Source: Escherichia coli (lineage in GTDB: Bacteria > Pseudomonadota > Gammaproteobacteria > Enterobacterales > Enterobacteriaceae). From it: a stretch of 64,000 bases of DNA. Position 1 is the stretch's first letter. Each line of letters opens with the position of its first letter. Positions 39,981-58,577 of the stretch are shown here, one piece after another. Position numbers and translations under genes: made by a program. Location of the stretch: the NCBI RefSeq assembly GCF_013315695.1, contig NZ_CP054353.1. One strand, written 5' to 3'. The notes under the pieces are model-generated. The model was given only the letters and a program-made list of their open reading frames with translations. It was not told the DNA's origin and ran no database searches.

Positions 39981-40022
39981 AAAAAAGCCCGGTATACACT
40001 TGTATACCGGGCTATTTTTTAT
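39981..40022. terminator. bidirectional terminator between the receptor gene and parE
   Basis: Hairpin agcccggtatacacttgtataccgggct flanked by an A-run and a T-run. Confidence 0.55.
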
Positions 40023-40041
40023 TCTTCTGGCGGGAGGATTA

Positions 40042-41937
<1,896 letters not shown>

Positions 41938-41962
41938 TTAAGTTAGCAATTCGAGTTGATCG

Positions 41963-42544
41963 TCAGAGATGGTGCAGACCAAGAAAATCGACGATCGGGT
42001 TGAAATAATCTTCGAAGCCCGTGAATGCGTGGTTGCCGCCTTCTATGACAGTCTGGCGGCAGGAAGCGTAGTACGCCACCGCCTGGCGGTAATCCAGCAC
42101 TTCATCTCCCGTCTGTTGCAGCAGCCAGATCAAATCCGGCGCTTCCAGCGGGTCAATCTGCATGACTTTGAGATCGTAAATATGGCGTGACTCTAGCACA
42201 TATTGCTGCCCGGTGTAGGGGTTCTCGTTCTGACCGAGATAGTCCGTCAGCAGTTCAAACGGGCGCACCGCCGGGTTGACCACCACTGCGGGCAGCATAA
42301 AACATTGCGACAACCAGGTGGCGTAATATCCCCCCAGTGACGAACCGACAATACCCAGCGAATCGCCGCCATGTTCCAGGACAATGGATTCCAGCAGTTC
42401 TGCCGCGTCAGAAGGATACGGCGGCAACTGCGGAATGATCATCTCTACGTCAGGGTGATGTTCCGCCAACCAGTTTTTTAACAAGCTCGCTTTTGCAGAG
42501 CGCGGCGAGCTGTTGAAACCGTGTAAATAAAGAAGCGTAGACAT
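41963..42544 (-). CDS. yqiA: alpha/beta-hydrolase esterase
   Basis: 193 aa. Confidence 0.8.
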
Positions 42545-43371
42545 CAGTAGCCTTCTGAAGCGGTATCAGGTTGGAAACGTGTGTCCGCCAGGCGATGCAC
42601 CTCGGTGGTCAGCGTGCCATCAGCATGTAACTCGAGAGTACGCCAGCCGGGCGCGATGGTGTCCAGCGTAAAGTTAGAACAGTGCGGCTTAAACTGCACA
42701 CAGGTCGACGGCGTTGCCAGCAGGCGGCGACCGTTCCAGTCGAGATCCAGCTCCTGATGAATATGACCGCACAGCAAGTATTTGACGTGCGGAAACTTCG
42801 CCAGCACGGTATCCAGTTCGCCCGCGTTACGCAGGCTGTGTTGATCAAGCCAACTACAACCCGCAGGTAGCGGATGATGATGCAGCAGCAGCAACGTATG
42901 GCGTTCTGGCGCATCGGCCAGTTTACGTTCCAGCCACTCAAGCTGAAACTCGCTCAGCTCACCGTGCGGCACGCCAAACACCTGGCTATCCAGCAACAGG
43001 ATTTGCCATTGCTCACCAATAAACACCCGCTTCGCCGGGGAGATACCCGCATCCTGTAACGCGCTGTACATCGCGGGCTGGAAATCGTGGTTGCCCGGCA
43101 GCCAGACGCAGGGCGCACGAAAACTTGCGATGCCTTCAGCGAAATGCTGATAGGCCGCAGAGGATTGATCCTGCGCTAAATCACCTGTCGCGACAATCAG
43201 GTCGAATTCGTGCTGGTGTGGCCGAATCGCCTCCAGCACCGCCTGGTAGCTTTCCCAGGTGTTTACCCCTAACAGGGCTTCGTGCTTTTGCGCAAACAGG
43301 TGAGTGTCGGTAATTTGTAAAATCCTGACTCTGGCCTCACCAGCCAGAGGAAGGGTTAACAGGCTTTCCAA
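42544..43371 (-). CDS. cpdA: 3',5'-cyclic AMP phosphodiesterase
   Basis: 275 aa metallophosphoesterase. Confidence 0.85.
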
Positions 43372-43395
43372 ATGGTGTCCTTAGGTTTCACGACG

Positions 43396-43818
43396 CTAAT
43401 AAACCGGAATCGCCATCGCTCCATGTGCTAAACAGTATCGCAACCAGTCCGCTAAAAACTGATTAATTTGATGCTTTTCGTCGCGTTGATGCAACTTTTT
43501 ATTAGGATAATCATACCGCGCTTTGAAGCGAAAAATCTGCTGGCTTGAACACACTTCAGCCACCATCGCGTCATGATACAGACGCACCGTCATTGACGGA
43601 AGGCTCCAGTAACTGATCGCGGGCGCAGTCTGTTCTATTGTCACCAGGGTAGTGTATCGGGTCGATTCCACAATCGTCAGCCGATATTGTGCGTTTGCCA
43701 CCTGATAGCTTACAGTTTCGCCGGGTGCGTCATTGCGCGGTAACAAACGGCGCAATTGTGAAAAGTTCATCTCGCACAGGCGCATCATTTCAGGAAAGTC
43801 AGGTGTGTAACGCTTCAT
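43396..43818 (-). CDS. yqiB: DUF1249-family protein
   Basis: 140 aa. Confidence 0.75.
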
Positions 43819-44448
43819 TTATGCCCACTCATTTTTTAACGCTTGATGATGCAGCTGCAGCCATTGCAAAGCGATGACCGACGCTGCGTTGTCGATTTTC
43901 CCCTCTTCTACCCACTGGTATGCCTGTTCCCGGCTTACCACATGAACGCGAATATCTTCGTTTTCATCAGCCAGACCGTGAATACCGCTTGCGGTCGTGG
44001 CGTCCACTTCGCCCACCATAATTGACGAACGCTCACTGGTGCCCCCCGGGCTTGCCAGGAAACTTAACACCGGTTTGGTCCGTTTGACTATCAGCCCCGC
44101 CTCTTCAATCGCTTCGCGACGGGCAACATCTTCCACACTTTCCCCCTCTTCAATCATCCCGGCAACCATCTCCAGTAGCCAGGGGGTTTCGCTAGTGTCG
44201 TACGCGGCAATTCGAATCTGCTCAATCAGCACAACTTCATCACGCACTGGGTCAAAGGGTAGCAAGACTGCGGCGTGACCGCGCTCAAAAATTTCCCGCC
44301 GTACCTCATGACTCATTTGCCCGTTGAATAGACGATGACGAAATCTATAAAGATCTAATGAAAAAAAGCCGCGATAAAGTGTTTCTCGTGCAATAATTTC
44401 TACATCGTTTTTGCCAAATGTAACGGGCAGGTTGTCTGGCTTAAGCAT
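43819..44448 (-). CDS. nudF: ADP-ribose pyrophosphatase (Nudix)
   Basis: 209 aa; Nudix box. Confidence 0.85.
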
Positions 44449-44652
44449 TGTTAATGTCCTGGCACTAATAGTGAATTAAATGTGAATTTCAGCGACGTTT
44501 GACTGCCGTTTGAGCAGTCATGTGTTAAATTGAGGCACATTAACGCCCTATGGCACGTAACGCCAACCTTTTGCGGTAGCGGCTTCTGCTAGAATCCGCA
44601 ATAATTTTACAGTTTGATCGCGCTAAATACTGCTTCACCACAAGGAATGCAA

Positions 44653-46134
44653 ATGAAGAAATTGCTCCCCATTCTTATCGGCCTGAGCCTTTCTGGGTTC
44701 AGTTCGTTGAGCCAGGCCGAGAACCTGATGCAAGTTTATCAGCAAGCACGCCTTAGTAACCCGGAATTGCGTAAGTCTGCTGCCGATCGTGATGCTGCCT
44801 TTGAAAAAATTAATGAAGCGCGCAGTCCATTACTGCCACAGCTAGGTTTAGGTGCAGATTACACCTACAGCAACGGCTACCGCGACGCGAACGGCATCAA
44901 CTCTAACGCGACCAGTGCGTCCCTGCAGTTAACTCAATCCATTTTTGATATGTCGAAATGGCATGCGTTAACGCTGCAGGAAAAAGCAGCTGGGATTCAG
45001 GACGTCACGTATCAGACCGATCAACAAACCTTGATCCTCAACACCGCGACCGCTTATTTCAACGTGTTGAATGCTATTGACGTTCTTTCCTATACACAGG
45101 CGCAAAAAGAAGCGATCTACCGTCAATTAGATCAAACCACCCAACGTTTTAACGTGGGCCTGGTAGCGATCACTGACGTGCAGAACGCCCGCGCACAGTA
45201 CGATACCGTGCTGGCGAACGAAGTGACCGCACGTAATAACCTTGATAACGCGGTAGAGCAGCTGCGCCAGATCACCGGTAACTACTATCCGGAACTGGCG
45301 GCGCTGAATGTCGAAAACTTTAAAACCGACAAACCACAGCCGGTTAACACGCTGCTGAAAGAAGCCGAAAAACGCAACCTGTCGTTGTTACAGGCGCGCT
45401 TGAGCCAGGACCTGGCGCGCGAGCAAATTCGCCAGGCGCAGGATGGTCACTTACCGACTCTGGATTTAACGGCTTCTACCGGGATTTCTGACACCTCTTA
45501 TAGCGGTTCGAAAACCCGTGGTGCCGCTGGTACCCAGTATGACGATAGCAATATGGGCCAGAACAAAGTTGGCCTGAGCTTCTCGCTGCCGATTTATCAG
45601 GGCGGAATGGTTAACTCGCAGGTGAAACAGGCCCAGTACAACTTTGTTGGTGCCAGCGAGCAACTGGAAAGCGCGCATCGTAGCGTCGTGCAAACCGTAC
45701 GTTCCTCCTTCAACAACATTAATGCTTCTATCAGTAGCATTAACGCCTACAAACAAGCCGTAGTTTCCGCTCAAAGCTCATTAGACGCGATGGAAGCGGG
45801 CTACTCGGTCGGTACGCGTACCATTGTTGATGTGTTGGATGCGACCACCACGCTGTACAACGCTAAGCAAGAGCTGGCAAATGCGCGTTATAACTACCTG
45901 ATTAACCAGTTGAATATTAAGTCAGCTCTGGGTACGTTGAACGAGCAGGATCTGCTGGCACTGAACAATGCGCTGAGCAAACCGGTTTCCACTAATCCGG
46001 AAAACGTTGCCCCGCAAACGCCGGAACAGAATGCTATTGCTGATGGTTATGCGCCTGATAGCCCGGCACCCGTCGTTCAGCAAACATCCGCACGCACTAC
46101 CACCAGTAACGGTCATAACCCTTTCCGTAACTGA
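44653..46134 (+). CDS. tolC: outer-membrane efflux channel
   Basis: 493 aa from MKKLLPILIGLSL...; AAGGA RBS. Confidence 0.95.
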   Translation: MKKLLPILIGLSLSGFSSLSQAENLMQVYQQARLSNPELRKSAADRDAAFEKINEARSPLLPQLGLGADYTYSNGYRDANGINSNATSASLQLTQSIFDMSKWHALTLQEKAAGIQDVTYQTDQQTLILNTATAYFNVLNAIDVLSYTQAQKEAIYRQLDQTTQRFNVGLVAITDVQNARAQYDTVLANEVTARNNLDNAVEQLRQITGNYYPELAALNVENFKTDKPQPVNTLLKEAEKRNLSLLQARLSQDLAREQIRQAQDGHLPTLDLTASTGISDTSYSGSKTRGAAGTQYDDSNMGQNKVGLSFSLPIYQGGMVNSQVKQAQYNFVGASEQLESAHRSVVQTVRSSFNNINASISSINAYKQAVVSAQSSLDAMEAGYSVGTRTIVDVLDATTTLYNAKQELANARYNYLINQLNIKSALGTLNEQDLLALNNALSKPVSTNPENVAPQTPEQNAIADGYAPDSPAPVVQQTSARTTTSNGHNPFRN

Positions 46135-46281
46135 TGACGACGACGGGGCTTCGGCCCCGTCTGAACGTAAGGCAACGTAAAGATACGGGTTATCTGCCGC
46201 ATTCTTCCCCCTTCTCGCTTCAATTTCGACCAGCCATCCTCTATTCTGATGGGTATTTACCACTGGTCCCGGAAGACAAAA

Positions 46282-46953
46282 ATGAAACGGACAAAATCCA
46301 TACGCCACGCATCGTTCCGCAAAAACTGGAGCGCACGCCATCTGACACCAGTCGCTCTCGCGGTTGCCACTGTTTTTATGCTGGCGGGCTGTGAAAAGAG
46401 TGATGAAACAGTGTCTCTCTATCAAAATGCTGACGACTGTTCAGCTGCAAACCCAGGCAAAAGCGCCGAATGTACCACTGCGTACAACAATGCGCTGAAA
46501 GAAGCCGAACGTACTGCGCCGAAATACGCCACCCGTGAAGACTGTGTTGCTGAATTTGGTGAAGGTCAGTGCCAGCAGGCACCAGCCCAGGCTGGCATGG
46601 CACCGGAAAACCAGGCGCAGGCCCAGCAATCCAGCGGGAGTTTCTGGATGCCGCTGATGGCCGGTTACATGATGGGGCGTCTGATGGGCGGCGGCGCGGG
46701 ATTTGCACAGCAGCCGCTGTTCTCCTCGAAAAACCCAGCCAGCCCGGCTTACGGTAAATATACCGACGCGACGGGTAAAAACTATGGCGCAGCCCAGCCA
46801 GGCCGCACCATGACCGTACCGAAGACGGCAATGGCACCAAAACCGGCGACCACCACCACCGTTACTCGTGGCGGTTTTGGTGAATCTGTTGCCAAACAAA
46901 GCACTATGCAGCGTAGCGCAACCGGCACCTCTTCTCGTTCAATGGGTGGCTGA
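46282..46953 (+). CDS. ygiB: DUF1190-family lipoprotein
   Basis: 223 aa from [10 protein letters not shown]... Confidence 0.75.
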
Positions 46954-46958
46954 TACCG

Positions 46959-48119
46959 ATGGAAAGAGTCAGTATTACCGAGCGCCCGGACTGGCGCGAA
47001 AAAGCCCACGAATACGGTTTCAATTTTCACACCATGTACGGCGAGCCGTACTGGTGTGAAGATGCTTACTACAAGTTGACCCTCGCCCAGGTTGAAAAGC
47101 TGGAAGAAGTCACCGCCGAACTGCACCAGATGTGCCTGAAAGTGGTGGAAAAAGTGATCGCCAGCGATGAGCTGATGACCAAATTCCGCATACCAAAACA
47201 CACCTGGAGTTTTGTGCGCCAGTCATGGCTGACGCACCAGCCATCGCTTTATTCGCGTCTTGATCTGGCGTGGGATGGCACTGGCGAACCTAAGCTTCTG
47301 GAAAATAACGCCGATACGCCAACGTCACTATACGAGGCGGCGTTCTTTCAGTGGATCTGGCTGGAAGATCAGCTTAACGCCGGTAACTTGCCGGAGGGCA
47401 GCGACCAGTTTAACAGTTTGCAAGAAAAGCTGATCGATCGCTTCGTTGAGCTGCGTGAACAGTATGGCTTCCAGTTGCTGCATCTCACCTGCTGTCGCGA
47501 CACGGTGGAAGATCGCGGAACCATTCAGTATTTGCAGGACTGCGCGACGGAAGCTGAAATCGCTACCGAGTTCCTCTACATCGACGATATCGGGTTAGGT
47601 GAAAAAGGTCAGTTCACGGATTTACAGGATCAGGTGATTTCCAACCTGTTCAAGCTGTATCCGTGGGAATTTATGTTGCGTGAGATGTTCTCCACCAAGC
47701 TGGAGGATGCAGGCGTACGCTGGCTGGAACCGGCGTGGAAGAGCATTATCTCCAACAAAGCGCTTCTACCGCTACTGTGGGAGATGTTCCCGAATCACCC
47801 GAACCTGCTGCCCGCTTATTTTGCGGAAGATGATCATCCGCAAATGGAAAAATATGTGGTTAAACCGATCTTCTCCCGTGAAGGCGCAAACGTGTCGATC
47901 ATTGAGAACGGCAAAACCATTGAAGCAGCGGAAGGTCCGTATGGCGAAGAAGGGATGATTGTTCAGCAATTCCACCCGTTACCGAAATTCGGCGACAGCT
48001 ATATGCTGATTGGTAGCTGGCTGGTGAACGATCAACCTGCCGGAATTGGCATTCGTGAAGACCGTGCATTGATCACCCAGGATATGTCTCGGTTTTATCC
48101 GCATATTTTTGTTGAGTAA
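46959..48119 (+). CDS. ygiC: glutathionylspermidine-synthase-like ATP-grasp protein
   Basis: 386 aa. Confidence 0.8.
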
Positions 48120-48215
48120 TACAGCTTAATATTGCCCCGATAAGCGGGGCAATCTCTTATAATCCACCATTCATAATTCCCATCAATATATAAACACATA
48201 CATATCCAACCTTTA

Positions 48216-48245
48216 TTTAACATTAATACTCAATTTAATGTTAAA
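48216..48245. repeat. perfect 11-bp inverted repeat with an 8-bp spacer in the assT leader
   Basis: tttaacattaa-tactcaat-ttaatgttaaa, about 360 bp upstream of assT in very AT-rich DNA. Confidence 0.4.
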
Positions 48246-48603
48246 TCGTCATATGCAAGCGATATTGTAATTAAAGTAAGTGAATACATCACAACATAAC
48301 TATTTGATATTATTTGAATACTTTACTTTTATCTCACCAGATTTAAATTTAATAATTAAAAAACAATGTTGCAGGGATCACACTACACAGTATTGAACAT
48401 TGTGATTGATATATTGCCCCCCTACTATCCATTAAACATAAATATTTGTTTCACCGAATAACAACATATTTAAAAGAAACACAAAAGCATTCTCACTCTT
48501 TATTGAATTAATATTCATATTCACGTAACGAATTTATTAGAACCCTCTCAACAGTCGATATTCATCATTATTATATATTTGCGTTATATAAGGAGATATA
48601 TCC

Positions 48604-50400
48604 ATGTTTGATAAATATAGAAAAACACTCGTAGCCGGAACTGTGGCGATAACCCTGGGTTTGTCAGCATCGGGGGTGATGGCTGCGGGTTTTAAACCAG
48701 CGCCGCCTGCCGGGCAACTGGGTGCGGTCATTGTCGATCCCTACGGCAATGCACCACTGACCGCTTTGGTTAACTTAGATAGCCATGTTATTTCTGACGT
48801 CAAAGTTACCGTCCATGGGAAGGGCGAAAAAGGCGTAGAAATCAGCTATCCCGTGGGTCAGGAATCACTAAAAACTTACGATGGTGTACCGATTTTTGGT
48901 CTTTATCAGAAATTTGCTAACAAAGTGACCGTTGAGTGGAAAGAAAACGGCAAGGTCATGAAAGATGATTATGTGGTGCACACTTCGGCCATCGTCAACA
49001 ATTACATGGATAACCGCTCCATCTCCGACCTACAGCAAACCAAAGTCGTTAAAGTCGCGCCAGGTTTTGAAGATCGCCTCTATCTGGTTAATACCCACAC
49101 CTTTACCGCCCAAGGTTCCGATCTCCACTGGCATGGTGAGAAAGATAAAAATGCCGGTATCCTTGATGCGGGTCCGGCAACTGGCGCACTCCCTTTTGAT
49201 ATCGCGCCCTTTACTTTCATCGTCGATACCGAAGGTGAATACCGCTGGTGGCTGGATCAAGACACTTTCTACGATGGTCGTGACCGCGATATCAACAAGC
49301 GTGGTTATCTGATGGGTATCCGCGAAACGCCACGCGGCACCTTTACCGCTGTACAAGGTCAGCACTGGTACGAGTTCGACATGATGGGGCAGGTGCTCGA
49401 AGATCACAAACTACCGCGCGGATTTGCTGACGCTACTCATGAATCCATTGAGACGCCAAATGGCACAGTATTGTTGCGCGTAGGTAAGAGCAATTACCGT
49501 CGCGATGACGGCGTACACGTCACCACCATTCGTGACCATATCCTCGAAGTCGATAAATCTGGTCGCGTTGTAGATGTATGGGATCTGACGAAGATCCTCG
49601 ATCCGAAACGCGATGCACTGCTCGGCGCGCTGGATGCAGGTGCAGTTTGCGTTAACGTTGACCTTGCCCATGCAGGACAACAGGCAAAACTGGAACCAGA
49701 TACACCGTTCGGCGACGCTCTGGGTGTAGGGCCAGGCCGTAACTGGGCGCACGTTAATTCCATCGCTTATGACGCAAAAGATGACTCAATTATTCTCTCT
49801 TCTCGTCACCAGGGTGTTGTGAAGATTGGTCGTGATAAGCAAGTGAAATGGATCCTTGCACCCTCTAAAGGTTGGGAAAAACCGCTGGCCAGCAAGCTGC
49901 TGAAACCGGTTGATGCTAACGGTAAGCCAATTACCTGTAACGAAAATGGCCTGTGCGAAAACTCAGACTTCGACTTTACCTACACCCAGCATACCGCCTG
50001 GATTTCCAGCAAAGGAACGCTCACCATTTTTGATAATGGCGATGGTCGTCATCTGGAACAACCTGCCTTACCAACCATGAAATATTCCCGCTTTGTGGAA
50101 TATAAGATTGATGAGAAGAAAGGCACCGTTCAGCAAGTGTGGGAATACGGTAAAGAACGTGGCTACGATTTCTATAGCCCAATCACCTCCATCATTGAAT
50201 ATCAAGCCGACCGTAACACCATGTTTGGCTTCGGTGGTTCTATTCATTTGTTCGATGTCGGGCAGCCAACCGTCGGTAAGTTGAACGAAATCGATTACAA
50301 AACCAAAGAAGTGAAAGTGGAAATCGACGTGCTGTCAGATAAACCCAATCAGACTCACTATCGTGCATTGTTAGTCCGTCCACAACAGATGTTCAAATAA
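48604..50400 (+). CDS. assT: periplasmic arylsulfate sulfotransferase
   Basis: 598 aa; signal peptide; followed by a dedicated DsbA/DsbB-like pair. Confidence 0.8.
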   Translation: MFDKYRKTLVAGTVAITLGLSASGVMAAGFKPAPPAGQLGAVIVDPYGNAPLTALVNLDSHVISDVKVTVHGKGEKGVEISYPVGQESLKTYDGVPIFGLYQKFANKVTVEWKENGKVMKDDYVVHTSAIVNNYMDNRSISDLQQTKVVKVAPGFEDRLYLVNTHTFTAQGSDLHWHGEKDKNAGILDAGPATGALPFDIAPFTFIVDTEGEYRWWLDQDTFYDGRDRDINKRGYLMGIRETPRGTFTAVQGQHWYEFDMMGQVLEDHKLPRGFADATHESIETPNGTVLLRVGKSNYRRDDGVHVTTIRDHILEVDKSGRVVDVWDLTKILDPKRDALLGALDAGAVCVNVDLAHAGQQAKLEPDTPFGDALGVGPGRNWAHVNSIAYDAKDDSIILSSRHQGVVKIGRDKQVKWILAPSKGWEKPLASKLLKPVDANGKPITCNENGLCENSDFDFTYTQHTAWISSKGTLTIFDNGDGRHLEQPALPTMKYSRFVEYKIDEKKGTVQQVWEYGKERGYDFYSPITSIIEYQADRNTMFGFGGSIHLFDVGQPTVGKLNEIDYKTKEVKVEIDVLSDKPNQTHYRALLVRPQQMFK

Positions 50401-50417
50401 TTAAGAAGGGAATAAAA

Positions 50418-51086
50418 ATGTCGAAATTAGGGATCTCATCACTATTTAAAAGCATACTGCTTACTGCAGCTTTGGCTGTTTCATTTACCGCCTCTGCATT
50501 TACCGAAGGCACGGATTACATGGTTCTGGAAAAACCTATTCCGAATGCAGACAAAACGCTGATTAAGGTATTCAGCTACGCCTGCCCGTTCTGTTACAAG
50601 TACGACAAAGCGGTTACCGGTCCGGTATCGGAAAAAGTGAAAGATATCGTTGCTTTCACGCCGTTCCATCTGGAAACCAAAGGTGAATACGGCAAACAAG
50701 CAAGCGAAGTCTTTGCGGTCTTGATCAATAAAGATAAAGCAGCAGGCATTTCCTTATTTGATGCTAACTCTCAGTTTAAGAAAGCCAAGTTTGCCTACTA
50801 CGTGGCTTATCACGACAAAAAAGAACGCTGGTCTGACGGTAAAGATCCGGCTGCTTTTATCAAAACCGGTCTGGATGCCGCAGGTATGAGTCAGGCGGAT
50901 TTTGAAGCGGCACTGAAAGAACCAGCGGTTCAAGAAACACTGGAAAAATGGAAAGCCTCTTATGATGTCGCCAAAATCCAGGGGGTTCCAGCCTATGTCG
51001 TTAATGGTAAGTACTTGATCTACACCAAGAGCATCAAATCCATCGACGCGATGGCAGACCTTATCCGTGAGTTAGCAAGCAAATAA
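50418..51086 (+). CDS. dsbL: DsbA-like periplasmic thiol:disulfide oxidoreductase
   Basis: 222 aa; signal peptide; CPFC active site. Confidence 0.75.
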
Positions 51087-51100
51087 CAGGGAAACAGGCT

Positions 51101-51772
51101 ATGGGTATTAAGGGAATGTGGAAAGATCTTCGCACATCACCAGTTGACACACTGGTCAGATGGCAGGAGCAACGCTTGTTGTGGTTGTTAATGGCCGTTG
51201 CGATGGGCGCGTTAATTATCCTGGCGCACTCTTTCTTCCAGATCTATCTCTACATGGCACCCTGTGAGCAATGTGTATACATTCGCTACGCCATGTTTGT
51301 GATGGTTATTGGAGGATTGGTTGCAGCGATCAACCCAAAGAACATCATCCTAAAGCTAATTGGCTGCGTGATGGCATTTTACGGCAGCATTTTGGGACTG
51401 AAGTTTTCGCTCAAACTGAACGATATCCACCATGCAGTACATAATCCGGATCCCGATTCACTGTTTGGCGTACAGGGTTGCTCTACCGATCCAACTTTTC
51501 CCTTTAACCTGCCGCTGGCACAGTGGGCACCAAATTGGTTCAAGCCTACCGGGGATTGTGGCTATGACGCACCAATCGTTCCTGATGGCGTCACACTGAG
51601 CAGCACGCAACAGTGGTTTGTGGAAATGTATCAGCAATCTGAAGGCTGGTATCTGCTACCACCATGGCATTTTATGAATATGGCTCAGGCTTGTATGCTG
51701 GCTTTTGGTATGTGTCTGGTGCTGCTGGTCATTATGAGTGGCGCATGGGCGCTTAAAATCATCAGAGGCTAA
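51101..51772 (+). CDS. dsbI: DsbB-like membrane disulfide oxidoreductase
   Basis: 223 aa; TM helices with paired Cys. Confidence 0.75.
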
Positions 51773-51782
51773 CTCAGCAACA

Positions 51783-51817
51783 CCCGAAGCCAGTCATTCT
51801 GGCTTCGGGTTCTTTTA
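51783..51817 (+). terminator. rho-independent terminator after dsbI
   Basis: Hairpin cccgaagccag...ctggcttcggg followed by ttcttttatt. Confidence 0.5.
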
Positions 51818-52606
51818 TTAACCTATCTGCACCGACAGCATACTTAAACTGCCCATTTCTATACCATCGACCGGAATGGTAATTGGCTCCTGCCCATCCC
51901 ACGCACCTAACACATACAACAACGGCAGATAGTGCTCTGGCGTTGGGTTCGATAACGCGCCACCTTCATGGTCGAGATAATTCACCAGAGGATGTTGTTC
52001 CACCGGCCCTTGCCACGTCAGATTCGCTTTCACATACTCATTAAACGACGTCGCCCACGGATACGGTGAACTATCACCGTGCCACTTCACTGTACGCAGG
52101 TTATGCACCACGTTGCCACTGGCGACCAACATTATCCCTTCATCACGCAGCGCCGCGAGTTTGCGCCCCATTTCGAAATGCCAGGCGGCAGGTTTGCTAC
52201 TGTCGATACTCAACTGCACCATCGGGATATCGGCGTCAGGATACATCTTAATCAGTACGCCCCACGAGCCGTGGTCGAAGCCCCAGGCTTCTTTATCCAG
52301 CGTCACAGGGACCGGCGCTAACAGCTCAACCAGATGCTGTGCCAGCGCAGGTGAACCCGGAGCAGGATAATGCGTATCGTACAGCGCCTGCGGGAAGCCA
52401 CCAAAGTCATGAATCGTGGGCGGCGTCTCCATCGCGGTCACTCCTGTTCCACGGGTAAACCAGTGAGCCGAAACCACCACTATTGCTTGCGGGCGTGGCA
52501 ATGTCATCCCCAACGTCTGCCAGCTGCGGGTATACAAATTATCTTCCAGCACGTTCATCGGACTACCGTGACCTAAAAACAATGCTGGCATACGTGTTGA
52601 AGACAT
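51818..52606 (-). CDS. ygiD: extradiol ring-cleavage dioxygenase (DOPA-dioxygenase-like)
   Basis: 262 aa from MSSTRMPALF...; AAGGA RBS. Confidence 0.8.
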   Translation of the reverse strand: MSSTRMPALFLGHGSPMNVLEDNLYTRSWQTLGMTLPRPQAIVVVSAHWFTRGTGVTAMETPPTIHDFGGFPQALYDTHYPAPGSPALAQHLVELLAPVPVTLDKEAWGFDHGSWGVLIKMYPDADIPMVQLSIDSSKPAAWHFEMGRKLAALRDEGIMLVASGNVVHNLRTVKWHGDSSPYPWATSFNEYVKANLTWQGPVEQHPLVNYLDHEGGALSNPTPEHYLPLLYVLGAWDGQEPITIPVDGIEMGSLSMLSVQIG

Positions 52607-52748
52607 GATGATATCCTTAACTAAAGGTGTCATTTTGATATCCTCACAATACGCTTGTTCGGCGGAGTAAGAACCCGGATAACAATGATGATGATCATCA
52701 GTTATTTTGACGATCTGCCTGAAAGTGAAGATTTATAAGGAGTTGTCG

Positions 52749-53522
52749 ATGTCAGTACCTCTCATTCTGACCATACTGGCGGGGGCAGCCACGTTTATTG
52801 GCGCGTTTCTCGGCGTTCTCGGGCAAAAACCCTCGAACCGCTTACTGGCGTTTTCGCTAGGATTTGCGGCGGGGATCATGTTGCTCATCTCATTAATGGA
52901 AATGCTTCCTGCCGCATTAGCCGCCGAAGGAATGTCACCTGTGTTGGGTTATGGAATGTTTATCTTCGGTCTGCTTGGCTATTTTGGCCTGGACCGCATG
53001 TTGCCACATGCGCATCCGCAGGATTTAATGCAAAAATCGGTGCAGCCGTTGCCAAAATCGATCAAGCGCACAGCCATTCTGCTCACTCTCGGCATCAGTC
53101 TGCATAACTTCCCGGAAGGGATTGCCACCTTTGTCACGGCGAGCAGCAACCTGGAGCTGGGCTTTGGCATCGCACTGGCCGTTGCGTTACACAATATTCC
53201 TGAAGGTCTGGCGGTTGCAGGCCCGGTTTACGCGGCAACGGGGTCTAAACGCACCGCGATTCTTTGGGCGGGGATTTCTGGACTGGCAGAAATTCTTGGT
53301 GGTGTGCTGGCGTGGTTAATCCTCGGTAGCATGATTTCCCCGGTGGTCATGGCGGCAATCATGGCGGCGGTTGCAGGAATTATGGTGGCGCTCTCGGTTG
53401 ATGAATTAATGCCGCTCGCCAAAGAGATTGACCCTAATAATAACCCCAGCTATGGCGTACTATGTGGAATGTCAGTGATGGGATTCAGTTTAGTGCTGCT
53501 ACAAACGGCGGGAATTGGTTAA
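52749..53522 (+). CDS. zupT: ZIP-family zinc transporter
   Basis: 257 aa from [10 protein letters not shown]...; AAGGAG RBS. Confidence 0.9.
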
Positions 53523-53579
53523 AAGCAACATCAGAAGTTGTCCAGCGCATGGACAACTTCTGCCAGCTTCACTAAAGCC

Positions 53580-53750
53580 TTATTCTACCTTTTCGGCTGT
53601 CTCTTCTCTCGTACTGTTTAAGTATTTGTTCCGCGCTTCAAGCAGTGCGTCTCTGTCCTGGCGAAACGCCCGACAATAACGTTTCAAATGCAGGAAATAA
53701 CCCACAACAACAAGAGCAATCAATACAATCCAGTACCAGGCGATAAACAT
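53580..53750 (-). CDS. hypothetical small membrane protein (56 aa from the ATG)
   Basis: Single predicted TM helix (FIAWYWIVLIALVVVGYFL); AAGG before the ATG at 53750; the track ORF starts at an upstream TTG. Confidence 0.35.
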   Translation of the reverse strand: MFIAWYWIVLIALVVVGYFLHLKRYCRAFRQDRDALLEARNKYLNSTREETAEKVE

Positions 53751-53940
53751 CCTTTTACCCTTAATATTTAACAATACTAAACATTTAGCGCATAAATTTC
53801 ACATATCCTTTTTCGGATATATTCATATGGTCGCATAATAACGGAACAATTATATGATTTTGATCATAATGAAAAAGAATGCCTGATATTAATGAAATTT
53901 TCTCATAGAAAGAGAAGCGGAATTAACATCTTGCTTAGCA

Positions 53941-53980
53941 GGGAAAAATAAAAACCGAAGCCTGCTACAACTTCGGTTTC
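53941..53980 (-). terminator. ribB rho-independent terminator
   Basis: Hairpin aaccgaag...cttcggtt followed on the minus strand by a T-run. Confidence 0.5.
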
Positions 53981-54011
53981 TTGATTAAGGCAGTAAATTA
54001 AGCAGCGGTTT

Positions 54012-54665
54012 TCAGCTGGCTTTACGCTCATGTGCCTGACGGTATGCCACCAGGTCTTCAATAGTCACGAGCGCCATATTGTGTTTATTGGCAAACTCAA
54101 TGCACTCTGGTGCACGCGCCATCGTGCCATCGTCATTAGTCAGCTCACACAGCACACCAGCCGGTTTAAAGCCTGCCAGCGTCATTAGATCAATAGTTGC
54201 TTCAGTATGACCGCCACGCGTCAGTACTCCACCTGCCTGCGCGCGAAGTGGGAAAACGTGGCCCGGGCGATTCAGATCAGAAGGTTTTGCGTCATCGGCA
54301 ATCGCTGCGCGAACGGTCGTAATACGGTCAGCGGCAGAAACACCGGTAGTCACACCTTCAGCCGCTTCAATGGTCACGGTAAAACCGGTGCCATAGGCGC
54401 TGGTGTTATTTTCTACCATCATTGGCAGATCGAGTTGTTTACGGCGATCTTCAGTAATGCACAGGCAAACAATACCGCTACCGTGGCGAATGGTCAGCGC
54501 CATCTGCTCAACGGTCATGGTTTCTGCCGGGAAGATCATATCGCCTTCGTTTTCACGGTCTTCATCATCAAGCACCATTACACCGCGTCCTTCACGCAGC
54601 GCAGCCAGTGCATTTTCAACACGTTCGAAAGGCGTACCAAAAGAGGAAAGTAGCGTCTGATTCAT
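54012..54665 (-). CDS. ribB: 3,4-dihydroxy-2-butanone-4-phosphate synthase
   Basis: 217 aa. Confidence 0.95.
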
Positions 54666-54699
54666 GGTAAAAAAACCTCACTAAAATTATGGTTACCAG

Positions 54700-54935
54700 A
54701 ATCAGGGCAGTCTTAGGAGTGGCGGCATATAGCCAAAATAACGTGAGCGGGTCCATGCCCGACAGAATCGTTACTCTCTCCCATCCGGACTCTAACCGTC
54801 GGCCCCGGAATTACACCGGATCTGCTGTCCTTTGAGTTCGCACCCAAAGCGCTCGCGGGCTTTCAACTGAGTTGATTTACCGCCGGTGGGGAATTTCGCC
54901 CCGCCCTGAGAATAAGCGGATTCACTATAACGCTA
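54700..54935 (-). promoter_or_regulatory. FMN riboswitch (RFN element) in the ribB leader
   Basis: Minus strand carries GGGCGGGGCGAAATTCCCCACCGGCGG and the downstream GGATGGGAGAGAG-type conserved segments. Confidence 0.8.
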
Positions 54936-55038
54936 ATGATTAGCGGCAGCAACGCATAGCTTCACATAATTCTGGTTTATGACTTACCCTTATCGCACTA
55001 CAATGGCACTCAACACCTATCAGTACAGGGAAACTACA

Positions 55039-55338
55039 ATGATTGACCCGAAAAAAATTGAGCAAATCGCTCGCCAGGTTCACGAATCAATGCCTAAAGG
55101 AATCAGGGAGTTCGGGGAAGATGTGGAGAAAAAAATCCGCCAAACCCTACAAGCGCAGCTGACACGTCTCGATCTGGTAAGCCGCGAAGAATTCGACGTT
55201 CAGACGCAAGTCCTGTTACGGACTCGTGAAAAACTGGCGTTACTGGAACAGCGCATCAGTGAACTGGAAGCGCGCAATAATTCGGTAGCAGATCTTCAAT
55301 CTCCTCCGGCTATCCCGCCTATTGATAAAGCAGAATAA
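55039..55338 (+). CDS. ubiK: ubiquinone-biosynthesis accessory factor (BMFP family)
   Basis: 99 aa from [14 protein letters not shown]...; coiled-coil. Confidence 0.75.
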
Positions 55339-55343
55339 AGCAA

Positions 55344-55372
55344 CACAAAAACGGGCCAGACGGCCCGTAATA
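55344..55372. terminator. bidirectional terminator between convergent ubiK and glgS
   Basis: Hairpin acgggcc-aga-cggcccgt. Confidence 0.45.
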
Positions 55373-55573
55373 TCAGTGTTCTAATTCAAGTTCTCTGGTT
55401 TGCATCATTTGTTGGCAATACCAGGCATAACGTGCGCAAAACCAGGTTCTATGTTCTTCATCCATGTTACCAGTAACGGCCAGAATATCGACCGGGCGAC
55501 CTTCTGCGTGCATTCTGGCAAAACTACGCGCCAGGAAATCGAAATTATTTAAAGAATTAAGACTATGATCCAT
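55373..55573 (-). CDS. glgS: surface-composition regulator GlgS
   Basis: 66 aa from [13 protein letters not shown]...; GGAGG RBS. Confidence 0.85.
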
Positions 55574-55841
55574 AAGCACATCCTCCGGTTATCGCATACC
55601 TTTTAAGGCCATATGCTTTTTCTGATTTCAGTATTCACCAATCAGTGTAGTGCCTTTAAACATAACGTGCGTAAATATATTGTCCCCGATCACACTTTTT
55701 AGTGAAAAATAAAAAACCATATTAAAAGACTTTCTCTTCCAGAACTTCTCTAACATGTGTTATTATTAACAAAGATAAATGTAAGCAAGGAAACTATCAT
55801 AAAGTAAATATTGCGTCACTAAATGGACATTGGAGTGACAT

Positions 55842-56471
55842 ATGATTTTATTCGCCGACTATAACACCCCTTATCTTTTCGCTATTTCCTTTGTACTGTT
55901 GATCGGCCTTTTAGAAATTTTTGCGCTTATCTGCGGTCACATGCTCTCCGGTGCACTTGATGCACATCTTGACCATTATGATTCCATAACCACAGGTCAT
56001 ATTAGCCAGGCACTTCATTATCTCAATATCGGAAGATTGCCAGCTCTCGTCGTTCTTTGCTTACTGGCTGGTTTTTTTGGTCTTATTGGCATCCTGTTGC
56101 AGCATACCTGCATCATGGTCTGGCAATCACCACTCTCGAACCTGTTTGTGGTTCCTGTCAGTTTACTGTTTACGATTATTGCGGTGCATTATACCGGTAA
56201 AATAGTTGCGCCCTGGATTCCACGCGATCATAGCTCAGCTATTACAGAAGAAGAATATATTGGTAGCATGGCGTTAATTACCGGTCATCAAGCCACTTCA
56301 GGTAATCCCTACGAAGGAAAACTCACCGATCAATTTGGCCAAATACATTATTTACTACTGGAGCCTGAAGAAGGAAAAATTTTCACTAAAGGAGACAAAG
56401 TGTTAATTATTTGCCGACTTTCTGCAACTCGATATTTGGCGGAAAACAATCCCTGGCCCCAAATATTGTAA
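55842..56471 (+). CDS. yqiJ: NfeD-like inner membrane protein
   Basis: 209 aa; N-terminal TM helices; precedes the flotillin-like yqiK. Confidence 0.8.
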
Positions 56472-56497
56472 TTTATTAATCAAAAGGAAATTTAATA

Positions 56498-58159
56498 ATG
56501 GATGATATTGTTAATTCTGTGCCCTCCTGGATGTTTACCGCGATTATTGCCGTATGCATTCTGTTTATTATTGGAATTATTTTCGCCAGGCTCTATCGTC
56601 GCGCTTCGGCAGAGCAAGCTTTTGTTCGTACTGGTTTAGGTGGGCAAAAAGTGGTAATGAGCGGTGGCGCAATCGTGATGCCGATCTTTCATGAAATAAT
56701 CCCCATCAATATGAATACTCTGAAGCTGGAAGTCAGCCGCTCAACCATTGATAGCCTGATTACGAAAGATCGTATGCGCGTCGATGTCGTTGTCGCTTTC
56801 TTTGTGCGGGTAAAACCGTCAGTGGAAGGTATTGCCACCGCCGCCCAGACGCTGGGGCAACGCACCCTGTCGCCTGAAGACTTACGTATGTTGGTTGAAG
56901 ATAAATTTGTCGATGCCCTCCGTGCAACAGCTGCACAAATGACCATGCATGAGTTACAGGATACCCGCGAGAACTTCGTGCAGGGCGTACAAAATACCGT
57001 TGCTGAAGATCTGTCGAAAAACGGCCTGGAACTGGAAAGCGTTTCACTTACCAACTTTAACCAGACGTCGAAAGAACATTTCAATCCTAACAACGCCTTT
57101 GACGCCGAAGGTTTAACCAAGCTGACGCAGGAGACGGAGCGCCGTCGTCGCGAACGTAACGAAGTTGAACAGGATGTAGAAGTTGCGGTGCGTGAGAAAA
57201 ACCGTGATGCGCTTTCGCGGAAGCTGGAGATTGAACAGCAAGAAGCGTTTATGACGCTTGAGCAGGAGCAGCAGGTTAAAACCCGTACCGCTGAGCAGAA
57301 TGCGAAAATTGCGGCTTTTGAAGCTGAACGTCGTCGTGAAGCAGAGCAGACGCGAATTCTGGCTGAACGACAGATTCAGGAAACAGAAATCGACCGCGAA
57401 CAGGCCGTCCGCTCAAGAAAAGTTGAAGCTGAACGTGAAGTTCGCATTAAAGAGATCGAACAACAGCAGGTCACCGAAATCGCCAACCAGACGAAATCGA
57501 TCGCTATTGCCGCCAAATCGGAACAGCAGTCACAAGCGGAAGCGCGTGCCAACCTTGCACTTGCAGAAGCGGTAAGCGCCCAGCAAAACGTAGAAACCAC
57601 TCGCCAGACCGCAGAAGCCGATCGTGCTAAACAAGTTGCCCTAATCGCTGCCGCGCAGGATGCAGAAACCAAAGCGGTTGAACTGACCGTGCGGGCGAAA
57701 GCAGAGAAAGAAGCCGCAGAGATGCAGGCGGCGGCGATCGTTGAGTTAGCCGAAGCAACACGCAAAAAAGGCCTGGCGGAAGCAGAAGCGCAACGTGCGC
57801 TGAACGACGCTATCAACGTACTTTCTGACGAGCAAACCAGCCTTAAATTCAAACTGGCCTTGTTGCAGGCGCTACCTGCGGTAATTGAGAAATCCGTGGA
57901 ACCAATGAAGTCCATTGACGGTATCAAGATTATTCAGGTCGATGGATTAAACCGAGGTGGTGCTGCGGGGGATGCGGCATCAGGCAGCGTTAGTGGCGGA
58001 AACCTGGCAGAACAGGCATTGTCTGCCGCCCTTTCTTACCGCACACAGGCACCGCTGATTGACTCCTTGCTCAATGAAATTGGCGTTTCAGGCGGCTCAC
58101 TGGCGGCATTGACTTCCCCCTTAACCTCAACAACTCCCGTCGAAGAAAAAACAGAGTAA
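56498..58159 (+). CDS. yqiK: SPFH/band-7 flotillin-like protein
   Basis: 553 aa; N-terminal TM helix, SPFH domain, long charged coiled-coil (EA-rich). Confidence 0.85.
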   Translation: MDDIVNSVPSWMFTAIIAVCILFIIGIIFARLYRRASAEQAFVRTGLGGQKVVMSGGAIVMPIFHEIIPINMNTLKLEVSRSTIDSLITKDRMRVDVVVAFFVRVKPSVEGIATAAQTLGQRTLSPEDLRMLVEDKFVDALRATAAQMTMHELQDTRENFVQGVQNTVAEDLSKNGLELESVSLTNFNQTSKEHFNPNNAFDAEGLTKLTQETERRRRERNEVEQDVEVAVREKNRDALSRKLEIEQQEAFMTLEQEQQVKTRTAEQNAKIAAFEAERRREAEQTRILAERQIQETEIDREQAVRSRKVEAEREVRIKEIEQQQVTEIANQTKSIAIAAKSEQQSQAEARANLALAEAVSAQQNVETTRQTAEADRAKQVALIAAAQDAETKAVELTVRAKAEKEAAEMQAAAIVELAEATRKKGLAEAEAQRALNDAINVLSDEQTSLKFKLALLQALPAVIEKSVEPMKSIDGIKIIQVDGLNRGGAAGDAASGSVSGGNLAEQALSAALSYRTQAPLIDSLLNEIGVSGGSLAALTSPLTSTTPVEEKTE

Positions 58160-58175
58160 ACCCTCTTCTATGAAT

Positions 58176-58208
58176 AATCCCTGGCCCAAAAAGCCGGGGA
58201 TTTTTTAT
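58176..58208 (+). terminator. yqiK rho-independent terminator
   Basis: Hairpin aatccctggc...gccggggatt followed by a T-run. Confidence 0.5.
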
Positions 58209-58339
58209 ATCTGCGTTCCGCTAAAAAGTACAAATGTTCAGGTTGTTACAGCGTTTTTCGAGCCGACTCGGGGAAGAGAAAACTGCATAAGAGAAAGCAT
58301 TGCGCGGGGTCTGGCGCTCATCAACAATCGGGGAGTCAG

Positions 58340-58480
58340 CAAGGGGCTGAAACGGGAAAGCCCCTCCCGAGGAAGGGGCCTTATAGAAGGAAAGGGTTAT
58401 GATGAAGTTCGTCATCATACTGGTTGTGTTGTTACTGTTAAGTTTCCCGACTTACTAACAACTCATCAGAGGGGGGAGAA
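58340..58480 (-). ncRNA. sib: Sib-type antisense sRNA antitoxin (boundaries approximate)
   Basis: Inferred from the ibs ORF and the GC-rich hairpins on the opposite strand; no promoter or terminator mapped. Confidence 0.35.
58399..58458 (+). CDS. ibs: Ibs-type type I toxin peptide, 19 aa (MMKFVIILVVLLLLSFPTY)
   Basis: atgatgaag... ORF with a GGAAAGG RBS; hydrophobic peptide ending in FPTY; below the size cutoff of the ORF track. Confidence 0.6.
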   Translation: MMKFVIILVVLLLLSFPTY

Positions 58481-58577
58481 ATCCTCCCTTACCCTTGTTC
58501 CTTTACTTTAGGTTGAAAAAACAACAGCGTCAATAGGTCTATCCGGCACAACGCGAGAACTGTGAAGCGCTTTCCGG

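Follow-up and report, generated by a model that had tools for sequence, protein, structure and literature searches.

The assT-dsbL-dsbI operon of Escherichia coli and its AT-rich control region in the tolC-ribB neighbourhood

The segment at positions 48120-51817 (3698 bp) of the window, i.e., the whole stretch of 64,000 nucleotides of E. coli DNA that was analysed, is the accessory operon assT-dsbL-dsbI, which is already known and well studied. The new content is its context, namely the homology of the leader, three conserved islands, two leader alleles and two chromosomal positions. Taken as a whole, the segment is probably explained by this known operon, combined with an old AT-rich control region, proposed silencing of the H-NS type and long residence in its chromosomal neighbourhood.

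Locus, operon and encoded proteins

Alignment with K-12 MG1655 revealed that the block is an exact replacement, from stop codon to stop codon, for the ygiC-ygiD spacer. In MG1655 this spacer measures 37 bp and the block is absent, as an earlier note on this DNA had stated. The K-12 spacer is REP-like and similar to the ygiC-ygiD spacer of Salmonella; the K-12 state may have arisen by loss or may be an alternative haplotype of older date. Within E. coli, the block is a clean presence/absence polymorphism, occurring in 1508 of 5426 complete genomes (27.8%), with an empty junction in 3917. A UK blood isolate (NZ_OZ547117) matches the window at 100% identity. The association with uropathogenic strains claimed in the earlier note agrees with the literature (PMC7810732; PMC13426309). 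The operon has also been described as absent from commensal or enteric pathotypes.

The block contains the three operon genes only, all on the + strand, with gaps of 17 nt between assT and dsbL and 14 nt between dsbL and dsbI; DNA identical to it carries the RefSeq labels assT, DsbA/DsbL and dsbI. The terminator scan placed an intrinsic terminator at 51782-51810 (+ strand; 12 pairs, 8 of them G-C, followed by a T run), 7 nt short of the ygiD stop codon. This terminator and that of the Salmonella and Citrobacter dsbI-ribB region are homologous (the window copy reaches z = 3.3, the E. whittamii copy 9-15). In S. Typhi, dsbL-dsbI also have internal start sites. The anatomy of the block (its spacers and one terminator) fits a single operon, and the literature describes assT-dsbL-dsbI as tri-cistronic, with DsbL and DsbI specific for the sulfotransferase, ASST (PMC7810732; PMC13426309). 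One transcript would thus cover all three genes and end at the 51782-51810 hairpin.

The first gene, assT (48604-50400, + strand), encodes a protein of 598 aa in which Pfam detected PF05935 (Arylsulfotrans, E 5.2e-136) and PF17425 (Arylsulfotran_N, E 1.4e-28). Aligned with the ORF, the mature chain of PDB 3ELQ, the crystallised enzyme of strain CFT073, starts at residue 28 and is identical to the window protein at 569 of 571 residues; the two substitutions, D57N and I148V in precursor numbering, are conservative. Residues C418, C424 and H436 (mature numbering) are all kept. We take H436 to be the catalytic histidine and C418-C424 to be the single disulfide; the roles of these residues were reportedly established by Malojcic et al. 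in 2008. Judged by its domains, export signal and key residues, the product is a periplasmic, PAPS-independent aryl-sulfate sulfotransferase. The CFT073 enzyme, nearly identical in sequence, has been shown to transfer sulfuryl groups from a phenolic donor to an acceptor (PMC7810732; PMC13426309).

The second gene, dsbL (50418-51086, + strand; 222 aa), encodes a DsbA-like periplasmic dithiol oxidase with a Pfam DSBA domain and a CPFC active site (its translation reads ...YACPFCYKY...). It matched PDB 3C7M, the crystallised CFT073 DsbL, with near-identity over residues 28-222 (E 7.8e-127) and scored 77 bits against the NCBIfam DsbA equivalog, for which the cut-off is 279, so that DsbL is regarded as a paralogue distinct from DsbA. 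The third gene, dsbI (51101-51772, + strand; 223 aa), encodes a DsbB-like membrane protein predicted to re-oxidise DsbL; it contains Pfam DsbB (PF02600), passed the DsbI equivalog model NF003304 of NCBIfam with 417.7 bits (cut-off 212) and matched the structures of E. coli DsbB (E 2e-10). What the earlier note had read from the letters, namely the identities of the genes, a CPFC pair of DsbA-like and DsbB-like proteins and a terminator, was thereby borne out by the ORFs, Pfam and the terminator scan, and comparison with the known assT-dsbLI loci gave the same assignments. The exported AssT would shift sulfuryl groups among phenolic compounds without PAPS in the periplasm; the one disulfide it requires would be put in by the co-encoded DsbL, which in turn would be re-oxidised by DsbI.

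The AT-rich control region and its conserved elements

The ygiC-assT intergenic region (48120-48603, + strand; 484 bp, 28.1% GC), comprising the control region and the 5' leader, bears no annotated feature in RefSeq. It is the sole stretch below 33% GC in the 64-kb window and contains the lowest GC found there. Sliding-window analysis upheld the extreme AT-richness that had been claimed for its greater part, 48157-48603, which has 26.4% GC versus 50.6% for the window and lies ∼5 sd under the mean of all 447-bp windows. The 447-484 bp upstream of assT are 72-74% AT, against the figure of more than ∼65-70% AT over hundreds of bp that serves as a criterion for H-NS loci. Strong AT-richness is confined to this non-coding region, the genes of the block having 45-49% GC. 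The coding part of the block has 47.8% GC versus 51-53% for the flanks, and a GC3 of 0.48-0.55 versus 0.55-0.62.

A tract of this kind (∼200-400 bp, 19-36% GC) precedes assT in 22 of 22 Enterobacterales loci, from Escherichia to Edwardsiella, and is present even in the latter, whose genomes have 58-60% GC. Since the tract is AT-rich in all 22 loci whatever the GC content of the host, its AT-richness appears to be maintained as a feature of the control region rather than being an unameliorated foreign signature. In the cross-genus comparison its sequence was poorly conserved apart from three islands, one of which holds a promoter-like module. The window leader is homologous to the divergent yqiD-assT region of Salmonella and Citrobacter, and from these alignments the 484-bp region looks like the operon's own control region, and an evolutionarily old one.

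Immediately after ygiC, a perfect 9-bp inverted repeat (ATTGCCCCG/CGGGGCAAT; 48131-48153, + strand) forms a hairpin that is probably the ygiC terminator. Where other Escherichia species differ in the alignment, compensatory changes preserve its pairing; owing to a weak T run, it was missed by the terminator scan. Further downstream, a perfect 12-bp inverted repeat, ATTTAACATTAA-N8-TTAATGTTAAAT (48215-48246), is a candidate regulator site and a conserved island in Escherichia, Citrobacter and Salmonella; the copy in the E. coli yqiD-ribB region is degenerate.

A CRP-like candidate, TGTTG-N6-TCACA (48367-48382, + strand), takes in an invariant GATCACA. Its right half is perfect, while its left half has two mismatches and lacks the key G and A. 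In 17 Enterobacteriaceae loci its spacing is constant and its distance to a TAnnAT motif fixed, with the centre at approximately -60.5 to -61.5 from the predicted start. As a plain pattern, the CRP consensus was at chance level in the window (20 matches, 26 expected), so that the weight given to this candidate derives from its cross-genus conservation. For comparison, a class I CRP-dependent promoter would have TGTGA-N6-TCACA with its centre near -61.5 ahead of a weak promoter; a literature search on CRP/cAMP control of assT returned nothing. A putative weak sigma-70 promoter follows at 48401-48428 (+ strand), with a -35 TTGTGA at 48401-48406, a 16-nt spacer and a -10 TACTAT at 48423-48428, which would place the transcription start at ∼48435. 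In the 17 loci, TA at positions 1-2 and AT at positions 5-6 of the -10 are kept, while positions 3-4 vary. The promoter scan reported no + strand sigma-70 promoter in the leader; it omitted this one because the score of 8/12 is under the threshold. The conservation profile marked a promoter-proximal/translation-initiation island at 48539-48603 (+ strand), which includes the near-invariant TATATAAGGAGATATATCCATG and the Shine-Dalgarno sequence AAGGAG (48590-48595).

The high-affinity H-NS motif TCGATAAATT, allowing up to 2 mismatches, was not enriched in the window (80 matches versus 65 expected), and its matches in the leader were weak only. An Rfam search of 47800-52200 returned nothing relevant, and folding of the predicted 181-nt 5' leader gave no RNA structure signal (z = 0.26).

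Within E. coli, the leader occurs as two sharply distinct alleles, carried by 1246 and 262 genomes. They are ∼77% identical, with almost no intermediates. The window has the type-1 leader, and strain MMC-J-0078 the type-2 leader. In the variable segments the identity between the alleles is 62-76%, while dS in the neighbouring genes is ∼0.1, i.e., these segments diverge faster than synonymous sites.

Residence in the tolC-ribB neighbourhood

The tolC-ribB neighbourhood of the operon is shared by Salmonella, Citrobacter, Intestinirhabdus, Pseudocitrobacter, E. albertii, E. whittamii and a cryptic Escherichia clade. Within it the operon occupies two positions: left of ygiD-zupT in Escherichia and Pseudocitrobacter, and right of zupT-yqiD in Salmonella and Citrobacter. 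In Pseudocitrobacter, a homologue of YqiD (E 2e-12) adjoins the leader. Between genera dS is saturated. Versus E. whittamii, dS was 0.32-0.37 for the block and 0.33-0.48 for its flanks, consistent with co-divergence, while versus Escherichia sp. MOD1-EC7003 it reached ∼1.1 for assT and dsbL and 0.14-0.42 for the flanks; the high values for assT and dsbL suggest some exchange of alleles between lineages. No tRNA genes were found in 40000-60000, no mobility genes in the block and no repeats at its boundaries.

The window's own yqiD-ribB intergenic region (53751-54011) holds both flanks of the operon position used in Salmonella and Citrobacter. Positions 53753-53868 align with the Salmonella yqiD-assT region over its first 117 nt (z = 33), and the ribB-proximal terminator at 53950-53982 aligns with the Salmonella dsbI-ribB terminator (z = 6.9). 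The middle 81 nt have no detectable homology to the block and may be either a deletion scar or the ancestral state. Direct similarity between the 5' half of the window leader and this region was not significant (z = 0.4), and the link between the two is transitive, via Salmonella and Citrobacter. A "yqiD remnant" at 48154-48206, hinted at by the multiple alignments, was rejected when shuffling, with yqiD and with its Pseudocitrobacter homologue as references, gave z ∼0.

By gene neighbourhood and sequence divergence, then, the operon has most likely long resided between tolC and ribB in the Enterobacteriaceae and is not a recent import. The earlier note had taken the AT-rich leader to suggest a horizontal origin, which is not supported in view of the synteny, the lack of mobility features, the dS values versus E. 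whittamii and the AT-rich tracts at all 22 loci.

Proposed silencing, alternative readings and known systems

Silencing of the E. coli locus by H-NS is plausible and a reasonable reading of the composition and of the published observations. As summarised in PMC4264507 from Gallego-Hernandez et al. (2012), assT-dsbL-dsbI of S. Typhi is repressed by H-NS and activated by LeuO. The chromosomal assT of CFT073 is not expressed in laboratory conditions and has been reported as up-regulated in the urine of infected mice (PMC7810732). In the same strain, H-NS binds only about one-third of the lineage-specific genes (Hustmyer et al. 2022; PMC9765446). In the proposed mechanism, H-NS, probably together with StpA, would coat the AT-rich tract and keep the weak, activator-dependent promoter (predicted -35 at 48401 and -10 at 48423) shut in the laboratory. 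Antagonists of the LeuO type, possibly with CRP at approximately -61, would activate it in certain conditions of growth or of the host.

Several other readings of the segment were weighed. That the block is a recent horizontal island of uropathogenic strains, its leader being a foreign, unameliorated sequence silenced by H-NS as xenogeneic, would account for its patchy occurrence in the 5426 genomes and its reported lack in commensal or enteric pathotypes, as well as for the somewhat lower GC of its coding part and the raised dS of assT and dsbL versus one Escherichia lineage. We nevertheless regard such an origin as improbable: integrase, IS, tRNA and flanking repeats are missing, the chromosomal neighbourhood is shared across several genera and other Escherichia, the block co-diverges with its flanks versus E. 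whittamii, and the strong AT-richness stops at the coding sequence. Amelioration would moreover have erased the tract, which is found in all the genera, including the GC-rich Edwardsiella.

The region might instead be a lengthy spacer that evolves fast and contains an ordinary regulated promoter, its composition being due to mutational bias in unconstrained DNA, with no specific role for a nucleoid protein. The rapid divergence of the variable segments, the H-NS motif counts and the lack of a structure signal in the predicted 5' leader fit such a spacer, which we still consider unlikely, as the tract keeps its length and AT content from genus to genus and whatever the host GC, which neutral drift would not achieve at 58-60% GC. 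In addition, repression by H-NS is reported for the Salmonella orthologue in the summary cited above (PMC4264507), and the gene is silent in laboratory culture (PMC7810732). A far less probable proposal takes the island at 48360-48430 to encode a small RNA or a small protein of 31 aa (ORF 48366-48461) instead of forming a promoter. The ORF has an ATG or TTG start and recurring R/G-S-H and Y-Y residues and is readable in most genera, but it lacks a Shine-Dalgarno sequence, and the conserved bases (GATCACA, TAC TAT) are invariant even at synonymous positions. Only 6 codons are left in Escherichia sp. MOD1-EC7003 and 19 in the type-2 E. coli and E. whittamii alleles. The small-ORF reading was rejected on these three grounds (no Shine-Dalgarno sequence, no synonymous variation, truncation in three lineages), and a small RNA finds no match in Rfam.

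The known operon with an old control region and H-NS-type silencing is therefore the reading we retain. A more ambitious combination of three proposals can be offered tentatively, and we consider it possible but doubtful. The tract may be a silencing platform selected for its composition: it keeps its AT content and length across the Enterobacterales, but its sequence, which surrounds a small, invariant, activator-dependent promoter module, changes more rapidly than synonymous sites do. The two leader alleles, old and discrete, may set different thresholds of sulfotransferase expression across ExPEC lineages. Finally, an ancestral divergent yqiD-assT control region may have been split when a segment was swapped locally, possibly through tandem duplication and then reciprocal loss, such that the yqiD-side elements stayed by yqiD and the assT-side elements by assT.

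The operon has been published as an accessory locus associated with UPEC and serves as a read-out in screens for DsbA inhibitors; in the search for the conditions in which the enzyme is produced, the conserved module and both alleles of the leader offer concrete targets. The AT-rich region is better understood as a conserved regulatory element than as a sign of foreign origin, and it cautions that one AT-rich intergenic region is insufficient to infer horizontal transfer. The two operon positions would provide a small, clean case of local rearrangement splitting a divergent control region.

Among known systems, the operon of UPEC CFT073 has the same genes, order and location as that of the window, with essentially no differences. 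Totsika et al. are said to have treated the CFT073 operon in 2009. A passage of PMC13426309 credits it to Grimshaw et al. (2008) and Malojcic et al. (2008 and 2014). The S. Typhi cluster consists of the same three genes in the same order; its upstream region is likewise AT-rich and shares with the window the inverted repeat, the TGTnG-N6-TCACA/TTGnnn/TAnnAT module and the Shine-Dalgarno region. In contrast to the window operon, which lies between ygiC and ygiD, the Salmonella cluster lies between yqiD and ribB and shares its control region with the divergent yqiD; the Salmonella genes have 78-79% DNA identity to those of the window. DsbA and DsbB of E. coli have the same folds and chemistry as DsbL and DsbI (a thioredoxin-like CXXC oxidase and a four-helix membrane re-oxidase) and are also able to fold ASST (PMC7810732), but DsbL and DsbI are operon-linked to a single substrate. 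The classical low-GC islands of Salmonella and pathogenic E. coli, horizontally acquired and silenced by H-NS, resemble the block in being strain-variable and laboratory-silent and in having an AT-rich region. Unlike them, the block is AT-rich in 484 bp of non-coding DNA only, has no mobility features and has long been syntenic across genera.

Gene content and occupancy of the block

The window is part of an E. coli chromosome; over the 4.8 kb around the block, it shares 100% identity with a UK blood isolate and 95-99% with other E. coli. The genes here are ordered tolC, ygiB, ygiC (46959-48119, + strand), a gap of 484 bp, three + strand ORFs in operon-like arrangement, ygiD (51818-52633, - strand), zupT, yqiD and ribB. 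The first ORF, assT (48604-50400), encodes the Pfam Arylsulfotrans domain with its Ig-like N-domain, and its mature chain (residues 28-598) shares 569 of 571 positions with 3ELQ, the crystallised enzyme of CFT073. After 17 nt follows dsbL (50418-51086; active site CPFC, Pfam DSBA), whose product matches PDB 3C7M at E 8e-127 and has an NCBIfam score far under the DsbA equivalogs. A further 14 nt separate it from dsbI (51101-51772; Pfam DsbB), the product of which scores above the curated NCBIfam cut-off for DsbI. A G+C-rich terminator hairpin of 12 pairs, followed by a T run, lies 3' of dsbI (51782-51810). The block is thus the known locus, and the earlier note had correctly recognized the sulfotransferase, its DsbA-like (CPFC) and DsbB-like pair and the terminator.

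In K-12 MG1655, ygiC and ygiD are 37 bp apart and, as the earlier note stated, the block is lacking: alignment places 3698 bp of the window in the exact position of the 37-bp spacer, with the two stop codons as limits. Among 5426 complete E. coli genomes, the site is cleanly polymorphic between two states, filled (1508) and empty (3917). One block match in this set was a record classed as plasmid, and the leader matches include NZ_OZ369162.1 (785,832 bp); the two may be one record, or a fragmented chromosome assembly may account for them.

The leader, i.e., the ygiC-assT intergenic region (48120-48603), has 28.1% GC, and the portion singled out earlier as exceptionally AT-rich (48157-48603) has 26.4%, versus 50.6% for the whole window. 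In sliding windows of 447 bp, GC is under 33% nowhere else in the 64 kb, which bears out that description. The coding part of the block is slightly below its flanks in GC.

Probable long residence and a proposed local rearrangement

The horizontal origin that the earlier note read from this composition is not supported. When one genome of each species was scanned, the operon turned up in E. albertii, E. whittamii, a cryptic Escherichia clade, Pseudocitrobacter, eight Citrobacter species, S. enterica arizonae, Intestinirhabdus, three Budviciaceae and four Edwardsiella. In all Enterobacteriaceae loci whose contig reaches the flanks, it occupies the tolC-ribB neighbourhood, either between ygiC and ygiD (Escherichia, Pseudocitrobacter) or after zupT-yqiD, immediately 5' of ribB (Citrobacter, Salmonella, Intestinirhabdus). 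No tRNA gene was found in 40000-60000, no gene for mobility in the block and no repeat at its boundaries. Relative to E. whittamii, dS is 0.32-0.37 for assT, dsbL and dsbI and 0.33-0.48 for ygiC, ygiD and zupT; between genera, dS is saturated for all genes. An AT tract of ~200-400 bp (19-36% GC) precedes assT in 22 of 22 loci, including those of Edwardsiella, which have 58-60% GC. Its retention across genera argues against a foreign signature, which amelioration would have removed over such time. A composition that is conserved where the sequence is poorly so points towards selection for AT-richness as such, the property that a nucleoid-protein platform needs. Alleles appear to have moved between lineages, since assT and dsbL are far more diverged from Escherichia sp. 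MOD1-EC7003 (dS ~1.1) than are the flanks (0.14-0.42). In Citrobacter sp. On2M (extracted locus L050, 3094-4611), an incomplete AssT match (residues 1-540, 63% identity) follows ygiC-ygiD-zupT, with no dsbL or dsbI match found beside it, and could be a copy that has decayed or diverged.

The leader shares homology with the divergent region between yqiD and assT in Salmonella and Citrobacter (z = 10.8 for the promoter-like module and 2.8 for the palindrome region). In Pseudocitrobacter (L007, 5419-5643, - strand), the sole local YqiD homologue (74 aa, E 2e-12) lies directly left of the assT leader, its gene overlapping the ygiC 3' end by 47 bp, and no yqiD homologue was found after zupT. The yqiD-ribB spacer of the window (53751-54011, ~30% GC) is 99% identical to that of K-12 and holds both flanks of the operon's Salmonella/Citrobacter position: in both strains it has retained the 116 nt of the yqiD-assT region nearest yqiD (53753-53868, z = 33) and a terminator homologous to that of Salmonella dsbI-ribB (z = 6.9). 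The palindrome TATGATTTTGATCATA (53853-53868) is conserved in this spacer and in Salmonella/Citrobacter, and degraded in the assT leader. The block at ygiC/ygiD has its own terminator copy (z 3.3 in the window, 9-15 for the E. whittamii version). These homologies indicate that the Escherichia arrangement derives from a yqiD/operon/ribB order, with both non-coding ends carried along. One proposed route, tandem duplication of the segment from ygiD through the terminator and then reciprocal losses, would yield precisely this layout. In the E. coli yqiD-ribB spacer, the central 81 nt match nothing in the block and may be a deletion scar or an ancestral state. A proposed yqiD remnant in the leader failed a shuffle test.

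Two readings of the empty K-12 junction were weighed. Its REP-like spacer resembles the Salmonella ygiC-ygiD spacer, which suggests an older haplotype; the presence of the block in sister species favours secondary loss.

To the right of zupT, structure varies among E. coli (L057 and L058, 8985-10801; window, 53580-55400; L003, 4841-5966). In some strains with the block, yqiD is divergent (80% identity over 63% of the gene) and is followed by fimbrial and usher genes in place of ribB. In the window the order is yqiD-ribB-ubiK-glgS, and the fimbrial gene ygiL, found after ubiK in K-12, is missing.

Leader anatomy and allelic forms

Alignments within Escherichia and across genera, together with a conservation profile, delimit three conserved islands amid otherwise fast-changing sequence. 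The palindrome island (48215-48246) contains a perfect 12-bp inverted repeat. The promoter-like module (~48347-48431) comprises a CRP-like site, TGTTG-N6-TCACA (48367-48382; GATCACA invariant), a candidate -35, TTGTGA (48401-48406), a 16-nt spacer and a candidate -10, TACTAT (48423-48428). Its spacing is constant in 17 Enterobacteriaceae loci, in which positions 1, 2, 5 and 6 of the last hexamer are retained (TAnnAT) and 3 and 4 vary, consistent with the pattern expected for a -10 element. The translation-initiation island (48539-48603), with AAGGAG 8 nt 5' of the ATG, differs hardly at all between genera. Another hairpin, 3' of ygiC (48131-48153), is preserved in other Escherichia through compensatory changes and probably serves as the terminator of ygiC. 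No Rfam family was found in the leader region, and structure prediction on the leader gave nothing stable. A small ORF across the promoter-like module was judged not credible from coding inspection and the Escherichia and cross-genus alignments. C. amalonaticus and Intestinirhabdus (L013, L020) carry a G+C-rich, repeat-like insertion of ~140 bp that separates the promoter-proximal island from the Shine-Dalgarno sequence (columns ~590-780 of multiple alignment A2).

Among the 1508 block-bearing E. coli, 1246 have a leader at least 95% identical to that of the window and 262 one at 60-80%; a reciprocal search with the second form (L056, 3555-4003) returned 262 genomes at 95% or above. The two forms share only ~77% identity, and intermediates are almost absent. 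Their divergence is limited to 48159-48351 and 48452-48551 (62-76% identity), while islands and flanking genes together are 86-100% and the adjacent genes 92-100% identical. The second form is similar to the leader of E. whittamii. As leader divergence exceeds the local dS of ~0.1, sequence comparison suggests a pair of old control-region alleles and not a steady drift. Within assT (48652-48951), identity between the window and strain WP5-S18-ESBL-09 (L057), which has the same leader form, falls to 86-92% over ~300 bp, against 98-100% in the remaining locus, suggestive of recombination tracts. The dsbL gene is unusually diverged from that of strain MMC-J-0078, a carrier of the second form (dS 0.33).

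Predicted control and relation to known systems

With TACTAT read as the -10, transcription is predicted to start near 48435, which would place the TCACA-containing site at ~-61, where class I CRP sites classically lie. This promoter would drive the operon, possibly with a CRP contribution. It scored 8 of 12 in a promoter scan of the leader and was not called; the left half of the CRP-like site is poor, and the bare pattern of the site occurs at chance level in the window. In S. Typhi, Gallego-Hernandez and colleagues reportedly found in 2012 a LeuO-dependent operon promoter and further start sites in minimal medium.

The earlier note's link of this block to uropathogenic strains agrees with the literature, in which UPEC CFT073 carries a tri-cistronic operon whose DsbL and DsbI constitute an ASST-specific redox pair (PMC7810732; PMC13426309). 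Commensal or enteric pathotypes are said to lack the operon (PMC6067686). The chromosomal assT of CFT073 was unexpressed in laboratory assay conditions and is reported to show higher expression in urine from infected mice (PMC7810732). For assT-dsbL-dsbI of S. Typhi, H-NS is cited as a negative and LeuO as a positive regulator (Gallego-Hernandez et al. 2012, via PMC4264507). By analogy, silencing of the E. coli leader by nucleoid proteins is a reasonable expectation, in which H-NS, probably together with StpA, would coat the leader.
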